Shown: positions 4,498 through 44,753, counted from the stretch's first letter. The stretch: DNA of 64,000 bases from Parcubacteria group bacterium (GCA_016217555.1 JACRHW010000017.1:5093-69092); one strand, 5' to 3'. Numbers and translations: made by a program. Notes: generated by a model not told the origin, from the sequence alone.

Positions 4498-5100
4498 ATG
4501 GACATTACGCATTTCCTTCAGACGTTTGGATATATAGGTGTCACCAGTCTCCTTATTACAGAGACTGGTTTGCTTGTTGGGTTCTTTTTGCCAGGAGACA
4601 CCTTGTTGTTTGCGATGGGGATTCTTATTTCACAACATATTTTTAATTTTCCTACTGCATTTCTCTCGATTATTGCTGGGGCACTTATTGGAGATACACT
4701 GGGATATATTATTGGTCGCGTGGCGGGGCCAATGGTATTCGCTCGCAAGGATTCTTTGTTTTTTGATCGTACGCACATTGAGGCGACACGTGAGTTTTAT
4801 AAAAAGCATGGATCACTCGCTGCGCTTATTGGCCATTTTTTTCCTATCGTACGTACTGCAGTGCCTACTTTTGCAGGGATAGGGCGTATGCATTTCCCCC
4901 GTTTCTTTCTCTGTGATTGTGTAGGAATAATAGTATGGGCATTTTCTTTTGTCTCACTTGGCTATTATTTTGGTGCAGCCATTCCTCATCTTGATAAATA
5001 TCTCGAAAAGGTGCTTCTTGGTATCTTTTTCATCTCCCTTTTGCCGGGTATTGTGCATTTTGTAATCCACAAATCAAAACTGAAGAAGACGCAACTTTGA
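4498..5100 (+). CDS. DedA-family membrane protein
   Basis: FLPGDTLLFAMGIL and G(x)IxGDxxGYxxGR motifs; ATG at 4498 preferred over the upstream overlapping start in the ORF track. Confidence 0.85.
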   Translation: MDITHFLQTFGYIGVTSLLITETGLLVGFFLPGDTLLFAMGILISQHIFNFPTAFLSIIAGALIGDTLGYIIGRVAGPMVFARKDSLFFDRTHIEATREFYKKHGSLAALIGHFFPIVRTAVPTFAGIGRMHFPRFFLCDCVGIIVWAFSFVSLGYYFGAAIPHLDKYLEKVLLGIFFISLLPGIVHFVIHKSKLKKTQL

Positions 5101-5266
5101 CACAGCGTATTCAACTAGTTTAAAATAAGGACAATATCAATTTTTACATAATTTAGAAATAAATTAATTTTTAAAATTTATAGCAGAAGCATCAAAGGGC
5201 ATAGAAAAACCAAAAGAATCTCTCGTAGAAAAGGGCTTTAGTTGGCTTCTTAAGAAATTAAAATTA

Positions 5267-8286: not shown

Positions 8287-8349
8287 CATTATTTGATTTG
8301 AATAGACAACAAAGCCCTTTTTCTAGGGTTTTGTGTTTTTGAGCTTAAA

Positions 8350-8404
8350 CTATGGGAGTTGAATTTCCATAGTTTTTGAATTTTGGTAATAGTTGTGATA
8401 GCAT
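8350..8404 (+). promoter_or_regulatory. conserved hairpin + promoter module, copy 1 (-35 TTGAAT 8376-8381, TGnTAGCAT extended -10 ending 8404)
   Basis: about 40 nt nearly identical to 11770-11823; 8-bp hairpin ctatggga/tttccatag; 17-nt spacer. Confidence 0.5.
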
Positions 8405-8441
8405 ATAACAATATGACGGTAGAAGATGTACAAAAAAAATA

Positions 8442-8699
8442 GTGCCTATTCTTGAGGAACATCGTGTAACTTACGCGGCTGTTTTTGGTAGTGTTGCACG
8501 TAATGAAGATACTCCCGAGAGCGATGTTGATTTGCTTGTTTGTTTACCTAGTCTAATGGGCATGTTTTCTTATATGCGTCTTATTCATGATCTTGAAACT
8601 TGTCTTAATAGAAAGGTAGATGTGGTAACGGAACAAAGTCTTAATAAATTTGTGAAGCCATACATAAAAGCCGATCTCAAAGTAATTTATGAAGGATGA
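8442..8699 (+). CDS. MNT-type nucleotidyltransferase (antitoxin of HepT/MNT pairs)
   Basis: FGSVARNEDTPESDVDLLV = GSxxRG..x..SDxD nucleotidyltransferase motif; GTG start. The better ATG at 8413 is out of frame by one base at an A8 run. Confidence 0.8.
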   Translation: MPILEEHRVTYAAVFGSVARNEDTPESDVDLLVCLPSLMGMFSYMRLIHDLETCLNRKVDVVTEQSLNKFVKPYIKADLKVIYEG

Positions 8700-8845
8700 T
8701 AGGGTATATATTGAACAGATATTAGAGGCAGTTGGTAAGATAAGGCAGTTTACCGAAGGAATAAACATGGAAGGATATTGCTGGTTTTCGTGATCGAGCA
8801 ATCCATGATTATTATCAAATCTTCCCGTCCTCGCAGATCATTTGA
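8699..8845 (+). pseudogene. HepT (DUF86) toxin remnant with internal deletion/frameshift
   Basis: N-terminal DRVYIEQILEAVGKIRQFTEGI (frame 1) then, in another frame, DIAGFRDRAIHDYYQI (Rx4HxY active-site motif); about 70 codons between them are missing. Confidence 0.7.
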
Positions 8846-8885
8846 GTAGGCAATATTATTTTTAGTACAGGGTGTTTGGGTCAAC

Positions 8886-10061
8886 CTATTTTATATTTTT
8901 TGCGATTTCTACATCTCTTATTTTGTACATTCTTTTCATTGCAATCGATTTCATTGCGCGATTTGTGGTGTAGCCTATGATGGCGAGTGCGAGGAAATAC
9001 ATCATTCCAAATAGAGTAAATGTAGGGGGTTTTTGCGCAAATAGGCTGAGAATGCTTGCCCCTACCCCCATAGAGGTTACTACGGTGAGGCTTTGTATGG
9101 AGTTGTTCGTGCTCTGTGCTTGGAGGGTTTCAAAGAGTTTTATGGCCGAGGCAACATAATTTTTAGTCATTGTCCACAAATCCTTAATATATTCTAATGT
9201 GTCGCTCAATGCCTCATAGCGGAATTGTAAGACGTTGGCAAAATGACGAAGTGATTCTTTGTTTTTAAAGATTGTTTCGCGTGTATGAATGTAGGTACCC
9301 ATTTGGTTAATGCGCGCTTCGATAAAATTGATTGTCTTATTGTAACTCTCTATTTCATTTTTGAAGGTGCCTATATCTTTTCCGCGTATTTCACCGCGTT
9401 CTTTGACCTCTGCAATTTTTTCCCAGATAAGACGATGAAGATTTAAATAACGATGTACTTGTCCTTTGAATTCGCGTATAAATATCTGCTCATTAATAAA
9501 TTGTCCTATATTTGAAAATGGTTCTGAGAGGCTGTTAATAATATAAAGAATATCTCCTCTATAGATTTCAAACGAATCTGCTTTGATTTCAAAATACTTT
9601 TTCTGATGAAAATCCTTAAGAAGTTGTTCTATATCTTCTTTTGTCGCATTGTCGAGTACCACAAAATAAGGATAAATCGTTTTTATGTTCGCCAACTCTT
9701 TTGGTACAGGTGCTCCAAGGCTAAAAATGTAGCTTAACGCGGGGGAGAGCTTTTCTTCGTAGTAGGAGGTAAGTGCCTTAATATCTTTCTCAAGTTTTGA
9801 TTCGGGGTTCTTGTTAAGGACAATCAGGCCATCTTCATAAATAGTGATTTCAATCCCTTGTTTTTCGATGAGTTTTACATATTCAAAATCTTCTATGTTC
9901 ATCTCAAGAGAGTGGATTCCGAGCGCTTTTTGAAGGGTTTTTAGTTTTTCTTTGTCCAAATCCAAAGGCGATTCCGCATCGCGAAGAAAATCATATATTT
10001 CCGAGAGGTGTAGGGTCGTTCTCTGAAACCAACCCCTAATATATATTTTTTGTATAGTCAC
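8886..10061 (-). CDS. hypothetical protein, soluble N-terminal domain + coiled coil + two C-terminal TM helices (CorA/DUF155-like architecture, no GMN motif)
   Basis: 391-aa ORF; architecture only. Confidence 0.6.
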   Translation of the reverse strand: MTIQKIYIRGWFQRTTLHLSEIYDFLRDAESPLDLDKEKLKTLQKALGIHSLEMNIEDFEYVKLIEKQGIEITIYEDGLIVLNKNPESKLEKDIKALTSYYEEKLSPALSYIFSLGAPVPKELANIKTIYPYFVVLDNATKEDIEQLLKDFHQKKYFEIKADSFEIYRGDILYIINSLSEPFSNIGQFINEQIFIREFKGQVHRYLNLHRLIWEKIAEVKERGEIRGKDIGTFKNEIESYNKTINFIEARINQMGTYIHTRETIFKNKESLRHFANVLQFRYEALSDTLEYIKDLWTMTKNYVASAIKLFETLQAQSTNNSIQSLTVVTSMGVGASILSLFAQKPPTFTLFGMMYFLALAIIGYTTNRAMKSIAMKRMYKIRDVEIAKNIK

Positions 10062-10168
10062 ACGTGTAGAGCTTTTATTATATTTACATTATACCATACT
10101 GAAAGAATGTTAATTCACAACAAATCAAAAATCTGACGATCGTCATGAATTTGATTACATAAAGATAA

Positions 10169-10210
10169 CCAAACATGAGTGGTATGATGTATCATACCAC
10201 TCATGTTTGG
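10169..10210. repeat. perfect 42-nt palindrome (20-bp arms, 2-nt centre) in divergent promoter region
   Basis: ccaaacatgagtggtatgat gt atcataccactcatgtttgg. Confidence 0.9.
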
Positions 10211-10232
10211 AGACAGGTAGGTTTTTAAAAAT

Positions 10233-10261
10233 TTGACATCATTGTTGGGGGGGGGTATTAT
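10233..10261 (+). promoter_or_regulatory. sigma70-type promoter TTGACA-17-TATTAT with G9 tract in the spacer
   Basis: TTGACA 10233-10238, spacer tcattgtt+ggggggggg (17 nt), TATTAT 10256-10261; 22 nt upstream of ATG 10284. Confidence 0.7.
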
Positions 10262-10283
10262 AAGAAAAAAGATTTAATATTTT

Positions 10284-11264
10284 ATGAAAGAAACACCTTC
10301 TCAAGAGAAACCAATAAATGTTGTTATAGATAAAAATGGTAATGCTGTTGGTACGACCGAAGATCTAAAGAGATATACAGAGCAACGAAGAAGGGAACAA
10401 GAGGCTTCAGGATTTGCGGCGCCAGAGAACAGTAGAGAAGATAGATTGAAGGAAAAAGAAATTGCGTTCGGGGCTGGGGCAGAAAAATTTAAACAATCTG
10501 CGAGTGCGCTTTGGCGTCGCTTAAAAGGTGGTGTAAAAAGCACGTTTGATATGATTAAAAAAGTTCCTGGCAAAATATATGCACACGTAGCAGTGGGGGC
10601 AGAAGATATTGGCACGCGATGGAAAGAAGAGATGAAAACAACGCAAGATGCATGGAAACAGGATAAGGAAAATCTTGGAAAGGGGCGGAGACAAATTGGG
10701 TCATTTATAAAAAAAGATTGGGAACATACAAAGGGTGATTGGGAAAACGTGAAAACGGGTGTTGTTGAGCGAGCTAACGATGCAGGTAGATTTATGGTTG
10801 AGATAAAAGATGGTTTTGTTGATGGATATAAAAACGTGCGAGACGGTGCAATAAAAGGATGTGGACGGATTTTGGAGGGTATCCGCTCTATGGTCAGCTC
10901 AAAAGCGCTCGAAGGATTAAGCGCAACCATCGATTTTTTAAACACCAAAAGGCAGGCAATAGAAAACGCACAGGGCATATTAAAAACACAAGCTGAGAAG
11001 CAGGATTTGCCAGGTAATTTTGAGAAAATTGTGGCAATGCAGACCGTGGGGGCAGTATATGACCCAAAACAAGAGGCGTTTTTGGAAGCACTTGCAGGAG
11101 GTGATAAAAAAACGTGGGAAGATTTTCGTAATAATAAAGCCTCTCAGAGCGCCAAAGATCGTGGCGATGATAATGATGGTTTGTTTTTGGGATGGGAACA
11201 AAAAGATTTTCAGGAACTTCTTAGAAGAAAAATGCGACATATAATAGATAGTCAACGTAAGTAG
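10284..11264 (+). CDS. hypothetical K/E/D-rich protein
   Basis: 326-aa ORF behind a canonical promoter; no family recognised. Confidence 0.6.
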   Translation: MKETPSQEKPINVVIDKNGNAVGTTEDLKRYTEQRRREQEASGFAAPENSREDRLKEKEIAFGAGAEKFKQSASALWRRLKGGVKSTFDMIKKVPGKIYAHVAVGAEDIGTRWKEEMKTTQDAWKQDKENLGKGRRQIGSFIKKDWEHTKGDWENVKTGVVERANDAGRFMVEIKDGFVDGYKNVRDGAIKGCGRILEGIRSMVSSKALEGLSATIDFLNTKRQAIENAQGILKTQAEKQDLPGNFEKIVAMQTVGAVYDPKQEAFLEALAGGDKKTWEDFRNNKASQSAKDRGDDNDGLFLGWEQKDFQELLRRKMRHIIDSQRK

Positions 11265-11274
11265 ATTTTAATTT

Positions 11275-11703
11275 ATGATTTCAAAAGAAGAATTAGTACA
11301 ACTCGTTATTGAATTAAAAGCAAAGAGGGTTCTTAATGAAGAAGAGGCTGATCAATACCTTGTTTTGGCACAAGGGGACGATATTATTGGAGTGGCGATG
11401 AATCTCTCTTTATTGCTCGATGAAAAATCAGTACAGGTAGATACGGAAATTCTTGATGTTACCTCAGAATTAGTAGACACTGCGAAAAAGATTGCAGAAG
11501 AATCAAAAGACGATGCAGTGATTAGTGAAGTCAATCGCCTTGAGGATGAATTTTCCGGTGTTTTAGAACAGCTTCAAAAAGATACAAAAGAGATGAGGGA
11601 TGATTATGCAAGTCTTGCTCCTGTTTTTGCAGAGGCTGAGGAGATAATAAGGGAGGGTGCTATCGAGGAGCAACGACAGAAAATTCAAGGTTCCGGTGCA
11701 TAA
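11275..11703 (+). CDS. hypothetical acidic coiled-coil protein
   Basis: 142-aa ORF 10 nt after the previous gene. Confidence 0.55.
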   Translation: MISKEELVQLVIELKAKRVLNEEEADQYLVLAQGDDIIGVAMNLSLLLDEKSVQVDTEILDVTSELVDTAKKIAEESKDDAVISEVNRLEDEFSGVLEQLQKDTKEMRDDYASLAPVFAEAEEIIREGAIEEQRQKIQGSGA

Positions 11704-11731
11704 TAACTATATTGTCGTAACTATTCTGTTG

Positions 11732-11759
11732 CAAACCTCAACAATGAGGTTTGTTTTTT
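11732..11759 (+). terminator. rho-independent terminator
   Basis: caaacctca-acaa-tgaggtttg + T6. Confidence 0.8.
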
Positions 11760-11769
11760 GATTTCCGAA

Positions 11770-11823
11770 TTATGGGAATTCAACTTCCATAGTTTTTGAG
11801 TTTTTGGAGGAGTGTGGTAGATT
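11770..11823 (+). promoter_or_regulatory. conserved hairpin + promoter module, copy 2 (-35 TTGAGT 11796-11801, TGnTAGATT extended -10 ending 11823)
   Basis: near-identical to 8350-8404; sits 13 nt upstream of glyA ATG. Confidence 0.5.
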
Positions 11824-11836
11824 TAAAAAATAAAAT

Positions 11837-13048
11837 ATGCGAGATACACAAATAGAGAATCTAATTAAAAAGGAGACACAGCGACAAAACGAAACGTTGG
11901 ATTTAATTCCCTCTGAGAATTTTGTTTCATCAGAGGTGCTTAAGGCGCTTGGCTCAGTACTTACTAATAAATATGCTGAAGGGTATTCTGGGAAGCGGTA
12001 CTATGGTGGAAATGAGTATGTCGATCAGATAGAAACATTATGTATTGATCGCGCACTCAAGGTGTTCAAGCTCTCACCTAAAAAATGGCATGTGAACGTG
12101 CAACCCTACTCTGGTTCTCCTGCAAACTTGGCAGTGTATGCTGGTCTTGTTCCACTTGGAGAAAAGATAATGGGGATGCAACTTGATATGGGAGGGCATC
12201 TTACCCATGGGCATAAGGTAAGTTTTACGGGGAGTGCGTGGAAACAGATTCCTTATGGCGTAGATCAGAAGACTGAGGTGTTGGATTATCATGCGCTCAT
12301 GGTGCTTGCCGAAGCGGAGAAGCCAAAGCTTATTGTTGTTGGATATACGGCGTATCCCCGAAAAATAGATTTTGCAAAATTTAGAGCGATTGCAGATAAA
12401 ATTGGTGCTTATCTCATGGTGGATATGTCGCACTTCTCAGGGCTTGTTGCTGGTGGCGCACTACCGAGTCCATTTAAGTATGCAGATGTAGTAACCACTA
12501 CAACACACAAGACATTGCGTGGGCCACGAGGGGCGATGATTTTTTGTAAAGCTGATCTTGCGAGGTCTATTGATCGTGCAGTGTTCCCTGGCCTTCAGGG
12601 GGGGCCTCATGTAAATCAGATTGCGGCTACTGCAGTTGCATTACTCGAAGCTGGTCAGCCAACTTTTAAATCTTATGCAAAGCAGGTGATTCTTAACGCG
12701 AAGGCACTTTCAAATGAGCTAAAGAAAATGGGTTGGAGAATTGTTTCGGGGGGGACGGATACGCATTTATTATTAGTAGATACTTTTGCACGAGGGATCC
12801 CTGGCAAGGAGGCGAGCGACTTACTACAAGAAAATGGTATAATAGTAAATAAGAACACCATTCCCTTTGATGCACGTTCTCCTATGGATCCTTCGGGGAT
12901 TCGCTTGGGAACTCCAGCGCTTACGACGCGAGGTATGAAGGAAAAAGAGATGGTGCTTATTGCACAGATGATTCACGAGGTGCTTTTAGAGAAAAAGAAC
13001 GTGTTGGCTCAAATCAAAATTCTCTGCAGAAGATTTCCAATAAAATAA
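11837..13048 (+). CDS. glyA: serine hydroxymethyltransferase
   Basis: full-length SHMT-like sequence; GGHLTHGH and PLP-lysine motif TTTTHKTLRGPRG. Confidence 0.97.
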   Translation: MRDTQIENLIKKETQRQNETLDLIPSENFVSSEVLKALGSVLTNKYAEGYSGKRYYGGNEYVDQIETLCIDRALKVFKLSPKKWHVNVQPYSGSPANLAVYAGLVPLGEKIMGMQLDMGGHLTHGHKVSFTGSAWKQIPYGVDQKTEVLDYHALMVLAEAEKPKLIVVGYTAYPRKIDFAKFRAIADKIGAYLMVDMSHFSGLVAGGALPSPFKYADVVTTTTHKTLRGPRGAMIFCKADLARSIDRAVFPGLQGGPHVNQIAATAVALLEAGQPTFKSYAKQVILNAKALSNELKKMGWRIVSGGTDTHLLLVDTFARGIPGKEASDLLQENGIIVNKNTIPFDARSPMDPSGIRLGTPALTTRGMKEKEMVLIAQMIHEVLLEKKNVLAQIKILCRRFPIK

Positions 13049-13055
13049 TAGCTTA

Positions 13056-13172
13056 AGAAATCAAAACGCAAAACGCAAAATTACAGCTCAAAACTAAAAA
13101 CTATCTTACTATTTTTTAAGTTTTAATTTTTTTGGTTGTAGTTTTGCCTTTTGACTTTTAAGTTTTGAATTT
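13056..13172. repeat. 'caaaa-word' long palindromic intergenic element, copy A1
   Basis: arms built of caaaac/caaaat words (aaatcaaaacgcaaaacgcaaaa ... ttttgccttttgacttttaagttttga); related to 14887-14986 and 37034-37135. Confidence 0.8.
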
Positions 13173-13231
13173 CTACTGTGCTTAACTACAACTTTAATTC
13201 ACGGTTTCGTTTTGTGAAAGCGTCTACGATT

Positions 13232-15767: not shown

Positions 15768-16613
15768 ATGAAAAATGCGTATCAGAACAATAAAATAGAG
15801 GGCAAAGGAATCGCGCGGGAGATTATTGAGGAGCTAAAGAAGCGTGAGGCGCCAGAGAAGTTTTTGGCTGCGTTTTTGGTGGGCGAGGATCCTGCTTCAT
15901 TGAGTTTTTTGAAGAAAAAGGAGGAGGTGGCCGATGAGCTTGGGATAGAGTTTCGTTTGTATCAATTGGTTCCTTCTGCGGGGGTGGTTCAGGTACGCGA
16001 AGAAATTATGCGCGTGCAGGAAGAGGAGGATTGTGGTGGGGTTTTGGTACAGCTTCCTCTTGCAACGCATTTAGGCGCTCATGACATTTTAAATGCAATT
16101 GATGTTACAAAAGATGTCGATGTTTTGGGGGAGTCGGCGCGTGGGCTATTTTATAACGGTGATAGTTTAATTCTCCCTCCAGCCGTGTCTGTTGTAGAAG
16201 GAATTTGCATGCGTCAAAATAGAGAACTTGCAAAAGCTCGCGTGGTGGTCTTGGGGGTTGGGTTTTTGATTGGAAAACCGATTGCAACTTGGCTTATGGG
16301 GAGGGTAAAGGAGCTTACTGTGCTTACTCGCAAAAGTGATTTGCTTGATCCTGCGTGTGGACTTCACTCAGCTGATCTGGTAATTACTGGCACAGGAAGT
16401 TCTGGTGTTATTCAACCAAGCATGCTTAAAGAAGGTGCGGGCGTCATAGATTTTGGAACAAGTTTTGTGGAGAAAAAACTTAAAGGAGATTTAGATACTT
16501 CCTATAATGAGGTTTCAAAATTATCATTTTATACTCCCACACCAGGAGGGACGGGGCCAATATTAGTCGCGAAACTTTTCGAAAACTTTTATAAGTTAAA
16601 TGAAAAATACTAA
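15768..16613 (+). CDS. folD: bifunctional methylene-THF dehydrogenase / methenyl-THF cyclohydrolase
   Basis: full-length FolD similarity, C-terminal TPTPGGTGP motif. Confidence 0.92.
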   Translation: MKNAYQNNKIEGKGIAREIIEELKKREAPEKFLAAFLVGEDPASLSFLKKKEEVADELGIEFRLYQLVPSAGVVQVREEIMRVQEEEDCGGVLVQLPLATHLGAHDILNAIDVTKDVDVLGESARGLFYNGDSLILPPAVSVVEGICMRQNRELAKARVVVLGVGFLIGKPIATWLMGRVKELTVLTRKSDLLDPACGLHSADLVITGTGSSGVIQPSMLKEGAGVIDFGTSFVEKKLKGDLDTSYNEVSKLSFYTPTPGGTGPILVAKLFENFYKLNEKY

Positions 16614-16712
16614 TATACGAATCCATACAAATGATACGAATGGTTACGAATACGTACGATATTCGTATTGATTTGTAGTATTAGTATCATTCGTATATTG
16701 GTATGGTTAATT
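16614..16712. repeat. 'tacgaat-word' palindromic intergenic element
   Basis: tatacgaatccatacaaatgatacgaatgg ... cattcgtata; fills the whole folD-tatD gap. Confidence 0.75.
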
Positions 16713-22339: not shown

Positions 22340-22352
22340 ATAAAACAAAGTC

Positions 22353-22432
22353 TTTGTATCTAGTATCTTGTATCTGGTATGTGTTCATAGGGGCAGATAA
22401 ATACTAAATACAAGATACTATATACTAACTAC
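22353..22432. repeat. 'gtatct-word' palindromic element, copy C1
   Basis: tttgtatctagtatcttgtatctggtat ... atactaaatacaagatactatatac. Confidence 0.75.
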
Positions 22433-22441
22433 TAAGTAATT

Positions 22442-29922: not shown

Positions 29923-31884
29923 ATGTCTGACGCACAATTTGATCTCGCTATTGGGGAGACGAACTTTCGCAACCAACGCGTGAGATTTGGTATTCGCCAA
30001 GACGATCGTAGGCGTCATACATATGTAATAGGTAAAAGCGGTATGGGAAAGAGCGTACTCCTTGAAAATATGGCCATCCAGGATATGGAGGCGGGGCGTG
30101 GTCTCGCATTTATTGATCCTCATGGAGATACCGCTGAGAAGCTTTTGGATTTTGTCCCAAAGTCTCGTATTAACGACGTTATTTACTTTGATCCTTCGGT
30201 GCTTGATCATGCAATCGCCCTTAACCCCATGGAAAATGTATCTATTGATCGGCGTCATCTTGTGGCATCGGGGCTTATGAGCGTGTTTAAGAAAATATGG
30301 CCTGATGTGTGGTCTGCGAGAATGGAATATATTTTGAATAATTGCCTCATGGCGCTTCTTGAGATTCCCGATGCAACACTTCTTGGTGTCATGCGTCTTC
30401 TAAACGACAAGGATTATAGAAAATATGTTATCGATCAGCTTACTGATCCTCTCGTGCGAGATTTTTGGACGAAGGAGTTTGCGCGTTATAAAGACCAGTT
30501 TCAGACGGAGGCAATTGCGCCTATTCAAAATAAGATTGGTCAGCTTACCATGAATCCTCTTATCCGTAATATTATTGGACAACCCAAATCGACCATTGAT
30601 ATTCGAAAAATAATGGATGAAGGAAAGATTTTTTTGGTAAATCTCTCTCGTGGGAGAATTGGAGAGGATAATAGCAGCATCCTTGGTTCTTTGCTCGCCA
30701 CAAAACTTCAGCTCGCAGCTATGAGTAGGATTGATATTCCACGCGAGGAGGACAGAAGAGATTTTTATTTGTATATTGATGAGTTTCAACATTTTGCGAC
30801 GCCGTCATTTGCTGCCATTCTTGCCGAGGCGCGCAAGTTTCATCTCAATCTCATCGTAGCTAATCAATACATGACTCAGATGGATGAGACGGTGCGAGAC
30901 GCCATAGTAGGAAACGTAGGGACTATGATGGTGTTTCGCATTGGTGCAGACGACGCCGAGTTTTTTGAAAAGGAGATGTTCCCTGTATTTCTTATGACTG
31001 ATTTGGTAAATCTTCCTCGTGCCCAAGTTATTATGAAGCTTATGATTGACGGGGCAACTTCTCCGCCTTTTTCCGCAGTGACACTTCCTCCGGCATCAAA
31101 ACCAGAGGTCAGTTTTCGTGATGAGATTTTGAAGGTTACCTACTCCACTTATTCTATTGCTCGTGAACGCGTAGATGAGATTATAAATGAATGGTTGAGT
31201 ACTAATTTTGTTTCTGACAAAGATGGTGGTGTCGATGGCGTCATTCCAGGAGGTGTAGCTCCCCGCGAAGGTGTTGGGGCAAGTCAAGACGTGGGTGTAC
31301 AACCTCAGCGTGAGATGTTTAACGCGGTGTGTTGGAATTGTACCGCAGAGACGCAGATTCCTTTTCAGCCCGATCCAAAGTGTGCAGTATATTGCAAAAA
31401 CTGTCTTAAACTTATTCAAGCCGGGAAGATTCTTCCACCGACGCGTCCAAGAGGTGGAGCACCTCTTCCGTCACAAGTACAACAGCAAAGCGCACCTCCT
31501 ATGCCGCCGTCACCACTACAAGCACAACAACCCGTCGTGAAACGGCAAGATGTTTCGTCTGTTCGCCAAGAAACTCCAATAGTAAAGGAATCACAGCAAG
31601 CACCTCGCCCACAATATGTTTCCGGGCAACATATGTCTTCCCAACCTCAAGCGCCGCAGTCTTCTGGGTCATCAGAGCAACCACCTATGCAACAATCGCA
31701 ACAAAACATTTCTTCGAGGTCACAACCTCTACAGGTACAACATTCATCTGCGACATCGTATCTCGACACTATGCTTAAGCAAGCTCCACCTCGCGAGGCG
31801 CGCAAGTTTGCTCCCCCAAAAAAGGAGGTAAATCTCGACGAGCTCAAAAAAGCGATTGAGGAATCTTTGAAGTCTGTGAAGTGA
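29923..31884 (+). CDS. VirD4/TraD (type IV coupling protein)-like P-loop ATPase fused to CxxC-x17-CxxC zinc ribbon and Q/P/S-rich tail
   Basis: Walker A GKSGMGKS, Walker B FYLYIDEFQHF, FIDPHGD; C-terminal CWNC-x17-CKNC; no TM segment. Confidence 0.8.
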   Translation: MSDAQFDLAIGETNFRNQRVRFGIRQDDRRRHTYVIGKSGMGKSVLLENMAIQDMEAGRGLAFIDPHGDTAEKLLDFVPKSRINDVIYFDPSVLDHAIALNPMENVSIDRRHLVASGLMSVFKKIWPDVWSARMEYILNNCLMALLEIPDATLLGVMRLLNDKDYRKYVIDQLTDPLVRDFWTKEFARYKDQFQTEAIAPIQNKIGQLTMNPLIRNIIGQPKSTIDIRKIMDEGKIFLVNLSRGRIGEDNSSILGSLLATKLQLAAMSRIDIPREEDRRDFYLYIDEFQHFATPSFAAILAEARKFHLNLIVANQYMTQMDETVRDAIVGNVGTMMVFRIGADDAEFFEKEMFPVFLMTDLVNLPRAQVIMKLMIDGATSPPFSAVTLPPASKPEVSFRDEILKVTYSTYSIARERVDEIINEWLSTNFVSDKDGGVDGVIPGGVAPREGVGASQDVGVQPQREMFNAVCWNCTAETQIPFQPDPKCAVYCKNCLKLIQAGKILPPTRPRGGAPLPSQVQQQSAPPMPPSPLQAQQPVVKRQDVSSVRQETPIVKESQQAPRPQYVSGQHMSSQPQAPQSSGSSEQPPMQQSQQNISSRSQPLQVQHSSATSYLDTMLKQAPPREARKFAPPKKEVNLDELKKAIEESLKSVK

Positions 31885-31885
31885 C

Positions 31886-31957
31886 CTTGTATTTAGTATA
31901 TCGTATCTTGTATAGTGTATGAATCCGCCGCAGGCGGATTATATCAGATACTATATG
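31886..31957. repeat. 'gtatct-word' element copy C2 with central aatccgcc/ggcggatt hairpin
   Basis: ccttgtatttagtatatcgtatcttgtatagtgtat gaatccgccgcaggcggatt atatcagatactata. Confidence 0.6.
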
Positions 31958-37034: not shown

Positions 37035-37135
37035 CTCAAAAATCAAAATGCAAAACTACAACTAAAAACTGAACGAACCAGCAAAAAAGTTTTATGGTTT
37101 TTAGTTGAAGTTTTGACTTTTGATTTTTAATTTTT
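37034..37135. repeat. 'caaaa-word' palindromic element, copy A3
   Basis: ctcaaaaatcaaaatgcaaaactacaactaaaaac ... gtttttagttgaagttttgacttttgattttt. Confidence 0.8.
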
Positions 37136-37141
37136 TACACC

Positions 37142-40751: not shown

Positions 40752-42728
40752 ATGCGTACACTTGTAAAAATCTTTCTTTTTCTTTCTATTTTTTCTTTAA
40801 TAATTTTTTCTACCGATTTATTTTTTCCCTATATTACGGGTAAGATTTTTGCATTTCGTTTTTTCATTGAATTTGCTTTTATCGCATGGATTCTTGATCT
40901 TTTTTTGCGAAAAACGTTACGGTTCCGTTTTTCCGAGCCAATAGTGAAGGCTCTTCTCATTTTTTCCGGCTCCCTAATTGTTTCTGCCTTTTTTGGAGTA
41001 AATCCTTCGTTTAGTTTTTGGTCTGATTTTGAACGTAGCGAGGGACTATTCTCCTTTTTTCATTATCTCGCGTTCTTTATTATGCTTCTTGATGTGTTTG
41101 TCATGGATGATTACTATCGTTTAATTAAAGCATTTCTTATTATTTCTCCTTTTATTGCCTATTATCAGTTTTCTAATTATGTAAATATTGAAAAACATGC
41201 TTTTGGAAGAATTAATGGACTTCTTGGAAATCCTTCCTATGTGGCAACATTTCTTCTTTTTGTTTTTGGTCTTGGTTTTTATCTTGTTCTTAAAAATAGA
41301 GAACTGTTTCGCTCAACAAAAGACGTCTTTGTGTTGTTTGAGAACTGGCTTTGGTGTTTAATTTTATTGATTGACATTCCTGCCTTTTTCTTTACACAAA
41401 CACGTGGAGCATATGTGGGCGTTTTTGTGGCATTGGTTGTTTATCTTATTATGCTTGGGCGATATGGGGTGGCAAAGGAAAAAAAGATGGCCCGGTACAG
41501 TCTTCTTTTTCTGAGCATTTTTATCGTTTTGGGCAGTGTGCTTATCTTAAAAACAAATGTACTCCCATCGAATTTAAAAGATCCGGGAAGTTTGGTTTCT
41601 CGTTTTTCTACATGGAAGGCCGCTTTGCGTGGATTTCTTGATCGTCCTTTGCTCGGATATGGTCCCGAAAATTTTAACATTGCTTTTGATAGACACTATG
41701 ACCCAGTCCATTCGGGACTAGAGACGTGGTTTGATCATGCACACAATCTTCCCGTTGAGCTTCTTGCGGTGACAGGCGTTGTCGGTTTTCTTGCGTATTT
41801 ATATATTTTTTATATTTTTTTTCGCTATTACTTCTCGATTATCCTTAAAAAACGTCCTATCTATGAAGCGGCTCTTTTCCTTGCAATCCCTGTAGCATAT
41901 TTCATTCAAAATCTTGCCCTATTTGATTCTCTTACCTCTTATGTTTTATTTTTTACATTTCTCGCCTTGGCACGCACCATCGTACTAAGGGAAACCAATA
42001 CATATAGTACCAATATAGTGTATTTTGGACGACCATTATTTATTGGGTTGTGTTGCATCATTCTTTTTTTTGCCCCCCTTTTTGGGATATATTCAAACAT
42101 ATTTGCACTACAAAAAAACATGCGCCTTCTCGCCACATTTTTACCACCACAACAATCGTTTTCTCCGAGCGCAAAAGTAAATGTATATAAGCAACTGTTT
42201 GATTTGCCGGGTTTTGTGGGGAGACGTGAGATTTCTACCGCTCTTGCAAAAGATATATTCGATTGGTCTTCTTCTCGTAATCTTAGTAAGTTTTCCAGAG
42301 AAGATTTTGATGCTTTGAATGAAGGAATAAATATGAGTGAAGAATATCTAACACATGACCCTTCTCATATTCGCAATTATTATTTGTTGGGATATGCTTA
42401 TTCATCAATTGGGGGTTATTTTAAAGACAGAAAGGCTCTGATTCGCGGAGAGGATATCCTCAAAAGAGCAGATAAGTTGAGTCCTGGTAGAATAGAATTT
42501 CTTGAAGTTCTGATTAAAAATCTTGGCGCGCAGAAGAAATATGACGAAGCTCTTAAGTATTCTTTAGAAATTATACGATTGCGCCCCGATATGGAGGCGG
42601 GTCACCGATTCGCCGGAGTCTTTTATCAAAAGATAGGAGAGACAAAGAAGGGGAAAGAAGAGCTTGGCAAAGCATTATTGATTAATCCATCTTCAACCGC
42701 ATCCATATTTTTAGAAGAGAACAAGTAG
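40752..42728 (+). CDS. O-antigen-ligase-like (Wzy_C-type) polytopic membrane protein with C-terminal TPR repeats, paralog 1
   Basis: FFFTQTRGAYVG loop motif, >10 TM, TPR-like tail; 658 aa. Confidence 0.75.
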   Translation: MRTLVKIFLFLSIFSLIIFSTDLFFPYITGKIFAFRFFIEFAFIAWILDLFLRKTLRFRFSEPIVKALLIFSGSLIVSAFFGVNPSFSFWSDFERSEGLFSFFHYLAFFIMLLDVFVMDDYYRLIKAFLIISPFIAYYQFSNYVNIEKHAFGRINGLLGNPSYVATFLLFVFGLGFYLVLKNRELFRSTKDVFVLFENWLWCLILLIDIPAFFFTQTRGAYVGVFVALVVYLIMLGRYGVAKEKKMARYSLLFLSIFIVLGSVLILKTNVLPSNLKDPGSLVSRFSTWKAALRGFLDRPLLGYGPENFNIAFDRHYDPVHSGLETWFDHAHNLPVELLAVTGVVGFLAYLYIFYIFFRYYFSIILKKRPIYEAALFLAIPVAYFIQNLALFDSLTSYVLFFTFLALARTIVLRETNTYSTNIVYFGRPLFIGLCCIILFFAPLFGIYSNIFALQKNMRLLATFLPPQQSFSPSAKVNVYKQLFDLPGFVGRREISTALAKDIFDWSSSRNLSKFSREDFDALNEGINMSEEYLTHDPSHIRNYYLLGYAYSSIGGYFKDRKALIRGEDILKRADKLSPGRIEFLEVLIKNLGAQKKYDEALKYSLEIIRLRPDMEAGHRFAGVFYQKIGETKKGKEELGKALLINPSSTASIFLEENK

Positions 42729-42776
42729 CGTGTTCAGGAGGCCAATAATTACAATCAAAACTTTTTTTAAAATTCC

Positions 42777-44753
42777 ATGCGTGTTCTTGTAAAAATCTTT
42801 CTTTTTCTTTCTATTTTTTCTTTAACGTTTTTTTTAGCTGACTATTATTTCCCCTATATTGTCAGCAAGGTATTTCCTTTTCGATTGTTTATCGAGCTTG
42901 CGACAATCTCGTGGCTCATCAATCTCTATTGGTTTCGTATAATACGTTTTAAGTTTTCTGAACCTATTGTAAAGGCTGTTCTTGTTTTTTCTGGGGCACT
43001 TCTTGCCTCCACTCTTTTTGGGGTGAACCCACTCTTTAGTTTTTGGTCTAATTTTGAACGGAGCGAGGGGCTTTTTTCTTTCTTGCATTATTTAGCATTT
43101 TTCATCCTCCTCATTGATGTATTTTCTGAAGATGACTACTATCGTCTTATTAAGTTTCTTCTTCTCCTCTCCCCGCTTATTTCTTATTATGGGTTTTCGA
43201 GTTTTCGGGATGCTAATACTTATCAGTATGGAAGAGTGTTTGGGGTTTTTGGAAATCCCTCATACCTTGCGGCATTTCTTATTTTTGTGTTTGGGTTTGG
43301 TGTGTTGTTGATTTTGAGAAATATAGAATTTGCTAAAGTTTTGAAGGATCCCTTGTTGATTGTCGAAAATATACTTTGGATAGTTCTTTTGTTGGGAGAT
43401 GTTCCAGCATTCATTCTTACACAGACAAGAGGTGCTTACATTGGACTTTTGGTTGGCGTGCTTGTTTTTCTTATCTTTCTTTTGCGGCAGGGAAAGGGGG
43501 TTCAGAAAAAATATGCTGTCGGAGGTCTCATTGTACTTCTTTCTCTTGTTGCGCTTGCGGGGTTTGTCATTTTAAAAACCAAAATAGCTCCGGCGAATCT
43601 TAAGGATCCATCCACACTTGTCTTTCGTTTTGCTACGTGGGGTTCAGCATGGAAATCATTTCTCGACCATCCTCTTTTCGGGTATGGTATGGAAAATTTT
43701 TCAGTTGGATTTGATAAGCACTATAACCCAATCCATTCGGGTGTTGAAGTCTGGTTTGATCACGCCCACAGTGTGATATTTGATGCACTTGCAAGCACGG
43801 GTCTCTTGGGACTTATTTCCTATATTGCTATTTTTGTAGTACTATTTCGTTTCTATCTTCCCGTGATCACAAAACGACGCCCGGTGTTGGAGGCTGGTGT
43901 ATTCTTTGCCCTTCCTATTGCATATTTTGTCCAAAACCTTGTTTTGTTTGATACCCTTTCTTCCTATATCCTTTTCTTTCTCTTTCTTGGTGTGGTGCGT
44001 TCAGTGTTTTTGAAGGAGACAAGCAAGAATAAAGAGAAAACTTTTTTTGCGGCACACCCCATACTACTAAGTTTTGTAGTGGTGATGCTTGTTATTGCTG
44101 TAGTTTTTGGTATTTATGCGAACTTTGTTGCTTATCAAAAAAATAGGGAGTTAAGGACCGCCTACACTCTTTCTCGCCAATCCCAACTTCCTCGTGGAGT
44201 GGAGGAGTATCGAGGATTACTTGATATGCCAGGATATTTAGGAAGAAGGGAGGTGATTAAGGATTTTGCCGCTTATTTGTATGAGTGGTCCGCAAAATCT
44301 GATTTGCGGTCTCTTTCCAAAGAGGATGGTGGTGCCCTGGGTGGGGGCTTGAGGACAGTAAACGATTTTCTTGACAAGGAAGATCCTCAATACCTTAATG
44401 GATATTATCTTTTTGCGAATACCTATAACGTGATTGCATTTAAATTGGGTGATGCTACCGTGTTTCAAAAGACGGAATCTACCCTAAAAGAAATGAATAC
44501 AAAGAGCCCAAATCGCATAGAAATAATCAATTTGCTTGCAGATAATCTTATTGCACAGAGAAAGTATGACGAGGCGCTTAGTTATGCGCTTCAAATTACA
44601 ACACTGCGTCCTGACATGGAGGTGGGGCATAGGCTTGTTGGGTTTGTATACAATAAGATAGGGAGGCGTGACGAAGCTAAAAAAAAGGGGGAGGAGGCTT
44701 TACGTATCAATCCAAGCTCTACCGCCGCAGAATATCTTAAAAAAATACGTTAA
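42777..44753 (+). CDS. O-antigen-ligase-like membrane protein with TPR repeats, paralog 2
   Basis: same architecture and same length (658 aa) as the upstream gene. Confidence 0.75.
   Translation: MRVLVKIFLFLSIFSLTFFLADYYFPYIVSKVFPFRLFIELATISWLINLYWFRIIRFKFSEPIVKAVLVFSGALLASTLFGVNPLFSFWSNFERSEGLFSFLHYLAFFILLIDVFSEDDYYRLIKFLLLLSPLISYYGFSSFRDANTYQYGRVFGVFGNPSYLAAFLIFVFGFGVLLILRNIEFAKVLKDPLLIVENILWIVLLLGDVPAFILTQTRGAYIGLLVGVLVFLIFLLRQGKGVQKKYAVGGLIVLLSLVALAGFVILKTKIAPANLKDPSTLVFRFATWGSAWKSFLDHPLFGYGMENFSVGFDKHYNPIHSGVEVWFDHAHSVIFDALASTGLLGLISYIAIFVVLFRFYLPVITKRRPVLEAGVFFALPIAYFVQNLVLFDTLSSYILFFLFLGVVRSVFLKETSKNKEKTFFAAHPILLSFVVVMLVIAVVFGIYANFVAYQKNRELRTAYTLSRQSQLPRGVEEYRGLLDMPGYLGRREVIKDFAAYLYEWSAKSDLRSLSKEDGGALGGGLRTVNDFLDKEDPQYLNGYYLFANTYNVIAFKLGDATVFQKTESTLKEMNTKSPNRIEIINLLADNLIAQRKYDEALSYALQITTLRPDMEVGHRLVGFVYNKIGRRDEAKKKGEEALRINPSSTAAEYLKKIR

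Follow-up and report, generated by a model that had tools for sequence, protein, structure and literature searches.

Does a run of nine guanines (G9) lodged between the -35 and -10 boxes of a near-consensus promoter in a Parcubacteria genome act as a slipped-strand switch of gene expression, or is it an incidental run in an ordinary promoter, and to what does that promoter belong? An earlier note on this DNA had drawn attention to the tract and to the possibility that expression of the two genes downstream is phase-variable. We have examined the tract within the window, that is, the whole 64-kb stretch of DNA that was analysed, and have compared the window with related loci. The delimitation of the cassette to which the promoter belongs is the main new result of this work.

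Anatomy of the promoter and its counterparts in the clade

A promoter of canonical sequence does stand before the gene that starts at 10284. Direct reading of the sequence and a consensus scan recovered both hexamers, the 17-nt spacer with the G9 run inside it, and the distance of 22 nt between the -10 box and the ATG of a 326-codon ORF, all as the earlier note had described them (Table 1). An in-frame TAA at 10275-10277, just upstream of this ATG, means that the ORF cannot begin any farther upstream. From standard sigma-70 geometry, the transcription start site is expected at about 10267-10269, which would leave a leader of some 15 nt without a Shine-Dalgarno sequence. As the -10 box is preceded by GGG, it lacks the TG of an extended -10 element; the promoter should thus depend on its -35 box, and hence on the spacing between the two boxes.

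Table 1. Positions of the promoter elements, genes and boundaries discussed in the text (window coordinates)
Feature	Position	Strand	Basis or remark
Second near-consensus promoter, TTGACA-N18-TAAAAT	5097-5126		140 nt upstream of the 825-aa ORF
Left D1 copy, 46-nt direct repeat (hairpin + glyA-type promoter)	8348-8393	+	islet boundary
Divergent 391-aa gene, C-terminal hydrophobic segments	8886-10061	-	conserved
Promoter of the 391-aa gene, TGGTATAAT	10088-10096	-	-10 box conserved in L005 and L007
Perfect 42-nt palindrome, 20-bp arms, 2-nt centre	10169-10210	.	22 nt upstream of the -35 box; unique in the window
Strain-specific cassette, ~1.58 kb (promoter, two genes, terminator, hairpin)	~10211-11792	+	insertion relative to L005
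-35 hexamer TTGACA, 6/6	10233-10238	+	sequence reading and consensus scan
17-nt spacer, TCATTGTT + G9	10239-10255	+	sequence reading
G9 homopolymer	10247-10255	+	abuts the -10 box directly; covers -21 to -13
-10 hexamer TATTAT, 5/6	10256-10261	+	preceded by GGG
First cassette gene (orf326), 326 aa, charged, predicted all-helical	10284-11264	+	ORF and codon score
Second cassette gene (orf142), 142 aa, acidic, helical	11275-11703	+	ORF and codon score
Intrinsic terminator-like hairpin + T run	11731-11754	+	10 pairs, then TTTTTTGATTT; closes the two-gene unit
Right D1 copy (hairpin + glyA promoter), 80% identical to the left copy	11768-11813	+	islet boundary

With 11 of the 12 consensus positions matched and a spacer of 17 nt, the G9 promoter has the top score between 8000 and 13500. 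The whole window holds two sites at 11/12, this one and the second near-consensus promoter of Table 1, and both are intergenic and point at the gene downstream. The probability that a given 9-nt run falls inside the spacer of a match of at least 11/12 is ~3e-4 to 9e-4, so the hexamers around G9 are not a chance frame.

Promoters of this kind are conserved among the related genomes, where TTGACA/TAnAAT-type elements with spacers of 16-18 nt recur. At the second near-consensus promoter of the window both hexamers are identical in the related locus L003 and the 18-nt spacer has diverged; the invariance of the hexamers indicates that a TTGACA/TAnAAT-type promoter is used in the clade. The glyA promoter, TTGAGT-N16/17-(GTGTGG)TAnAnT, is conserved in the window, L003, L005 and L007, and takes the form TTGAGT-N16-TAGATT in the window, within the right D1 copy. 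On account of these two phylogenetic footprints of -35/-10 promoters, we consider it probable, over all the readings that make use of it, that the G9 element is a working promoter. The 825-aa ORF behind the second near-consensus promoter is itself unevenly conserved, with 35% identity to its L003 orthologue over the N-terminal 350 residues and 78% over the C-terminal part.

A two-gene cassette in a variable locus upstream of glyA

Relatives of the locus were gathered via glyA and via the divergent 391-aa gene, a gene conserved, at 38-89% identity, across 28 metagenome loci. In L005, where the 391-aa protein is 91% identical and the SHMT encoded by glyA 88% identical, the sequence between the divergent genes follows that of the window closely up to ~10210-10213, and the match resumes at 11793 (TTTTTGAG...). 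The intergenic DNA of L005 keeps the TGGTATAAT promoter and both palindromes found in this part of the window, and then, after the large palindrome, runs into the glyA promoter. Everything between the two junctions in the window, namely the G9 promoter, the two genes, the terminator and a hairpin, is missing there. The cassette is also absent from L003, L007, L008 and L009, and from three further glyA loci (P0006-P0008). Its left junction leaves ~22 nt before the -35 box starts.

The cassette lies within a larger variable unit. In L003, which is collinear and has an SHMT 90% identical to that of the window, the gene for a DUF5663 protein is directly followed by glyA, with a single D1 copy between them, and in L004 the DUF5663 gene is likewise found beside glyA. 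Relative to L003, the window has an extra islet of 3,420 bp bounded by two D1 copies, which comprises an MNT-type nucleotidyltransferase gene, a weak HepT/HEPN remnant, the two-gene unit and, on the minus strand, the 391-aa gene. The 391-aa proteins of L007, L008 and L009 are 87-89% identical, and their genes are directly divergent to glyA, with ~70-95 bp of intergenic DNA; L007 has other gene content in the same place, and L007-L009 carry other genes together with the 391-aa gene. Presence or absence with sharp junctions in collinear DNA is therefore seen both for the cassette (against L005) and for the islet (the 3,420-bp indel against L003). Judged from these alignments, the region upstream of glyA (8287-11836) is an indel hot spot in the clade, and the promoter, genes and terminator are a nested cassette inside a 3.4-kb variable islet.

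No integrase or transposase gene was found in 8287-11836, and the cassette has no convincing terminal repeats, inverted pairs being at the level expected by chance. One candidate terminal inverted repeat, I5 (24 nt, 75% complementary), was set aside as a chance pair, since 14 such pairs occur in 4.3 kb. At 8442-8885 the islet encodes an 85-aa MNT-type nucleotidyltransferase (Pfam Polbeta/NTP_transf_2; PADLOC PDC-S09), followed by fragments in two frames that, when spliced, give a weak HepT-like/DUF86 match at E 3.7e-4, which does not reach the Pfam cut-off. The arrangement is probably what remains of a HEPN-MNT toxin-antitoxin pair after decay and loss of the toxin.

The neighbouring genes fit a genome of the Candidate Phyla Radiation (CPR), with a DUF5663 protein, SHMT (glyA), an FAD-linked oxidase, LeuRS, ClpB and SecD; the large genes of the window include none for mismatch repair. 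Elsewhere in the window (40752-44753), a pair of 658-aa paralogues, both with a Wzy_C (O-antigen ligase-like) domain, lie in tandem in a block of lower GC content (0.37-0.38) with strongly negative AT skew. A 653-aa protein at 29923-31884 combines a TrwB/type-IV coupling-protein DNA-binding domain with a treble-clef zinc finger, and a role in a DNA-uptake or conjugation-like system is possible for it. Short repeated words (tacgaat..., gtatcttgtat..., agttttgactttt...) recur in intergenic DNA at about 16600-16667, 22350-22441, 31885-31918, 13090-13177 and 37050-37141, and these regions may represent a lineage-specific repeat class or terminator/promoter modules.

Both cassette genes have the coding signature of real genes, with native-like codons. 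In-frame codon scores are 0.19 for orf326 and 0.31 for orf142, as compared with a genome mean of 0.21 +/- 0.07, and all other frames score negative. The second gene begins 10 nt after the end of the first, a gap that makes co-transcription probable, and the two probably share one transcript. Their description in the earlier note as uncharacterised charged proteins proved apt, and both turned out to be near-orphans. A word-index search among 5.8 billion proteins returned only the two proteins themselves, and the sole named database match of orf326 is its own entry ('MAG: hypothetical protein HZA35_02855 [Parcubacteria group bacterium]'). A full HMMER search of 1.84 billion representatives gave orf326 one marginal match (E 3.5e-4), which falls on the helical portion of a tape-measure-like protein of phage. 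Neither protein belongs to a family in Pfam, NCBIfam, PADLOC or the PDB. The AF2 single-sequence model of orf326 is all-helical, with an unreliable pLDDT of 45. By eye, no signal peptide or transmembrane segment is seen in either protein, and the products look cytoplasmic. A phage, plasmid or defence origin was considered and dropped: the three uncharacterised genes have no PADLOC match and weak PHROG matches only, and no relatives of the cassette were found in phage genomes or in the IMG/VR collection.

One relative of the pair was nevertheless recovered, in the more distant L006 (SRR5011273; SHMT 80% identical). A tblastn search identified there, immediately before glyA, a full-length homologue of orf142 (135 aa, 30% identity, E 1e-17); it is preceded by the end of an ORF, FLEKWEDKKFN*, that resembles the stretch LFLGWEQKDFQ near the C-terminus of orf326. 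The contig ends inside this first gene, before any promoter. The pair thus occurs in at least two lineages, in the same place, and evolves fast.

The resident DNA just outside the left junction offers a possible alternative or additional source of transcription. The 42-nt palindrome bears TGGTATGAT, an extended -10-like motif, on both strands, one of them at 10180-10188, 95 nt upstream of the ATG. If the hexamers around G9 were no functional promoter and the cassette were read from elsewhere, for example from this motif, then G9 would sit in a 5' leader of ~90 nt and its length would be irrelevant to promoter spacing. This would be in keeping with the promoter-like signals of the window at large, in which many upstream regions have TGGTAnAAT-like extended -10 motifs or TTGAC-type -35 boxes and the TGGTAnnnT-type extended -10 is the commonest such signal before genes; sigma-70 consensus matches of at least 10/12 show no excess either (15 in the window, 19.4 +/- 4.6 in simulations). 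However, the palindrome is, to judge from L005, resident DNA outside the cassette, since its counterpart there (~1190-1228, imperfect, with the centre changed from GT to AC) lies directly before the glyA promoter. TTGACA-17-TATTAT, on the other hand, is part of the cassette and stands as far from the first cassette gene as promoters typically do; such hexamers would frame the run by chance with a probability below 1e-3, and the same promoter type is footprinted at 5097-5126. The intergenic region gave neither an Rfam family nor a leader structure, its weak matches all being driven by the palindrome. Altogether, we regard transcription of the cassette from another promoter as quite improbable.

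The palindrome itself could be an operator, an alternative or bidirectional promoter, a hairpin or a cruciform. A 12-nt palindrome, TGACGATCGTCA, lies at 10134-10145 in the same divergent intergenic region (TAACGATCGTCA in L005), and a stretch of ~110 bp with both palindromes is missing in L007-L009. In L005, ~200 nt of extra, structured-looking leader (1275-1473), absent from the window, separate the glyA promoter from its ATG. The idea that this leader is a THF (folate-type) riboswitch was abandoned, as it gave no Rfam match.

Homopolymers are error-prone and the genome is metagenome-assembled, so the tract length, or even the whole junction, might be an artefact of assembly or sequencing. 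Against this, the Logan contig L001 (SRR12113407, a run of a groundwater project), the product of a second assembler although perhaps of the same reads, is 100% identical to window positions 10093-12190 over 2,098 bp. It spans the tract and both junctions unbroken, and the arrangement is therefore not a single-assembler chimera. A 9-nt run is also within the reliable range of Illumina sequencing. An artefact seems to us very improbable indeed.

The G9 tract: an incidental run or a switch

The earlier note had called the 9-nt G run conspicuous in AT-rich DNA. No other G or C run of the window is indeed as long, one C8 and seven G7 runs coming next, but the DNA is AT-rich in a relative sense only (~42% GC in the window and ~38% at the locus), and a run of this length is no rarity. 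Under an iid model, 0.13 G runs of at least 9 nt are expected per window; for G and C together the expectation is 0.32, and at least one such run occurs in 26% of windows simulated with a second-order Markov model, so that G9 alone is unremarkable. Its place in the promoter is another matter. A long run in the spacer of a real promoter is expected in ~0.0016 of windows, or ~0.025 times per 1-Mb genome, by a rough and post hoc Markov estimate that is too low because the spacers of the clade are G-rich. Even so, figures of this order do not make pure coincidence comfortable.

An excess of long G/C runs, a sign of contingency loci, is not seen in the 64-kb window, which has one run of at least 9 nt against 0.32 expected. 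Intergenic DNA of the window is not enriched in G/C runs, and it has no second run of at least 8 nt, the sole other run of that length being the coding C8. In ~180 kb of related loci there are two G/C runs of at least 8 nt, both C9 and both in the GC-richer L023, a distant relative. One of them is coding; the other (L023 6642-6650), the sole other intergenic run of at least 9 nt in these loci, lies after a ychF-like gene in a weak 9/12 match, TTGCAA-N18-TATGAT, and was judged near chance. Spacer G/C runs as a theme among the relatives were accordingly discarded, the pair in L023 being about what chance would give.

The G7 runs of the window fall in housekeeping genes, among them those at 12598-12604 and 12748-12754 inside glyA, and the C8 (6534-6541) sits in a proline-rich part of the 825-aa ORF. 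The C8 and both glyA runs are unbroken here and interrupted in most relatives (CCTCCACCA, GGGTGGG and GGGAGGG) by synonymous or near-synonymous changes. It follows that such runs build up in this strain and are tolerated there, essential genes included. The pattern suggests neutral run-filling, and there may be a strain-level tendency to fill G/C runs.

The glyA promoters show how short the way to such a tract might be. Towards its 3' end, the glyA spacer reads GGAGGAGTGTGG-TAGATT or GAGAGTGTGG in the clade, a few substitutions short of a G run. Like these promoters, the G9 element has G at -16, -14 and -13; unlike them, it has G in place of T at -15 and -17, and this makes the run uninterrupted. 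We also considered that the G9 promoter might be a diverged copy of the glyA promoter, since an aligner pairs TTGT-GAGAGTGTGG-TAGATT with TTGT-TGGGGGGGGG-TATTAT. This was dropped, as identity falls from ~90% in the flank to ~60% with gaps; we take the resemblance as one of function and not of homology.

Repeats in promoters are known to act as switches in other bacteria, including the poly-C tract of Bordetella fim, the poly-A tract of Mycoplasma hyorhinis vlp and the TA repeats of Haemophilus hifA/B. In these systems a repeat in or beside the core promoter alters the spacing of polymerase or activator contacts, as G9 might in the window; unlike the element studied here, they have other repeat types and regulators, all serve surface structures and all have been validated experimentally. 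Closer parallels are porA of Neisseria meningitidis, with a poly-G tract of ~9-11 nt in a sigma-70 spacer and expression highest at 17 nt, and tp0126 of Treponema pallidum, with a poly-G tract between -35 and -10 and an optimum of 17 nt (PMC7864442). That PorA phase variation works through the promoter poly-G is also described in PMC3639595. The likeness to known slipped-strand promoters that the earlier note had asserted is thus well founded as far as the geometry goes: the window element has the layout of porA and is currently in the 17-nt state, and in type, length and position its tract is similar to those of tp0126 and the tpr promoters. In tprL the tract is mostly G9 and ranges from 7 to 11 within isolates (PMC7864442), although in tprE, G, J and L it lies just upstream of the start site and not in the spacer as in the window.

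The settings differ. The porA gene encodes a major surface antigen of a host-adapted pathogen with dozens of repeat-controlled loci, and its switching has been measured, whereas the G9 element has one tract, in which no variation has been seen, and precedes genes for near-orphan, apparently cytoplasmic proteins in an environmental CPR bacterium. Many poly-G tracts of T. pallidum are shared among strains, vary as shown by fragment analysis and control outer-membrane proteins.

By analogy with these systems, G9 could make the promoter a contingency, or 'volume-control', element, in which slipped-strand mispairing reversibly changes the -35/-10 spacing. G9, with 17 nt, would be the ON or high state; G8 and G10 would be lower, and G7 or G11 off, so that a clonal population would always mix cells that express the cassette with cells that silence it, as at porA and tp0126. 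Much in the sequence suits such a mechanism. The spacer of a near-consensus promoter, now at its optimal 17 nt, takes in the entire tract, exactly where the proven switches have theirs (PMC7864442), and the lack of a TG extended -10 means that spacing should matter. G9 is a homopolymer of at least ~8 nt between the -35 and -10 boxes and reaches the length usually taken in silico to mark a hypermutable tract, and the expectation of ~0.025 such spacer runs per Mb of genome speaks on the same side. The cassette is accessory and strain-specific, in a hypervariable locus where contingency behaviour makes biological sense. Mismatch repair is moreover missing in at least some CPR lineages, some groups (Saccharibacteria) having neither MutS nor MutL (PMC8406219).

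The tract lengths at hand do not show the variation that a switch would produce. The two assemblies that have the locus, the MAG and the Logan contig, which possibly derive from the same reads, both read G9 with the tract unbroken, and no length variant was seen. Searches with the pattern TTGACATCATTGTT-N4-16-TATTATAAGAA returned no match in metagenome contigs and, in genome contigs, one chance match in Treponema with the spacer TTTCC. Exact-protein look-ups with orf326, orf142, orf391 and SHMT led to the Logan G9 contig or to nothing, and the closest relatives have no orthologous tract, the whole cassette being absent from them. To this are added the points made above, that the tract stands single in 64 kb without enrichment of G/C runs and that essential genes of this strain put up with G7 and C8 runs. 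Since spacers of 16 nt serve the native promoters of glyA, a tract longer or shorter by one base may do no more than tune expression, or may hardly matter. The cassette products lack surface or restriction-modification features and fall in none of the typical contingency classes (surface, restriction-modification, phage receptor, defence), which counts weakly. In a literature search, we found no paper that links simple-repeat phase variation with Patescibacteria.

Circumstantial evidence thus leans against G9 as an evolved switch, and we think it rather doubtful that the promoter is a contingency element of the porA kind. That G9 is a true slipped-strand switch which gates the near-orphan two-gene cassette in the insertion hot spot upstream of glyA is, taken as a whole, unlikely.

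Working model and meaning for the lineage

The reading that we favour, by a modest degree of belief, is that TTGACA and TATTAT form a functional promoter of a strain-specific orphan cassette and that the G9 run in its spacer is incidental, though slippage-prone in principle. A sigma-70-type RNA polymerase would recognise the two hexamers, whose 17-nt spacing is optimal, and begin transcription near 10268; the transcript would cover the 326-aa and 142-aa genes and end at the terminator. G9 would be a homopolymer that happens to fill the 3' half of the spacer, the promoter's least constrained part. As a G9 tract is intrinsically prone to slippage, rare G8 and G10 variants must arise; replication slippage would make the spacer 16 or 18 nt long and, given the native 16-nt spacers at glyA, would probably tune expression rather than abolish it.

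On this leading view, the locus holds an ordinary promoter and offers a clean example of a self-contained cassette nested beside glyA in a Parcubacteria lineage. If G9 were a switch after all, the cassette might provide an episymbiont with an accessory function, related for example to host interaction or phage, that is kept bistable in the population. To judge from our literature search, phase variation of a promoter by a simple repeat would then be described for the first time in the Candidate Phyla Radiation (Patescibacteria/Parcubacteria). The orphan cassette would also stand out as a function that is worth maintaining in a heterogeneous state, which for genes without homologues is a rare handle, and contingency-locus logic would reach past host-adapted pathogens to CPR bacteria that are ultra-small and uncultured.
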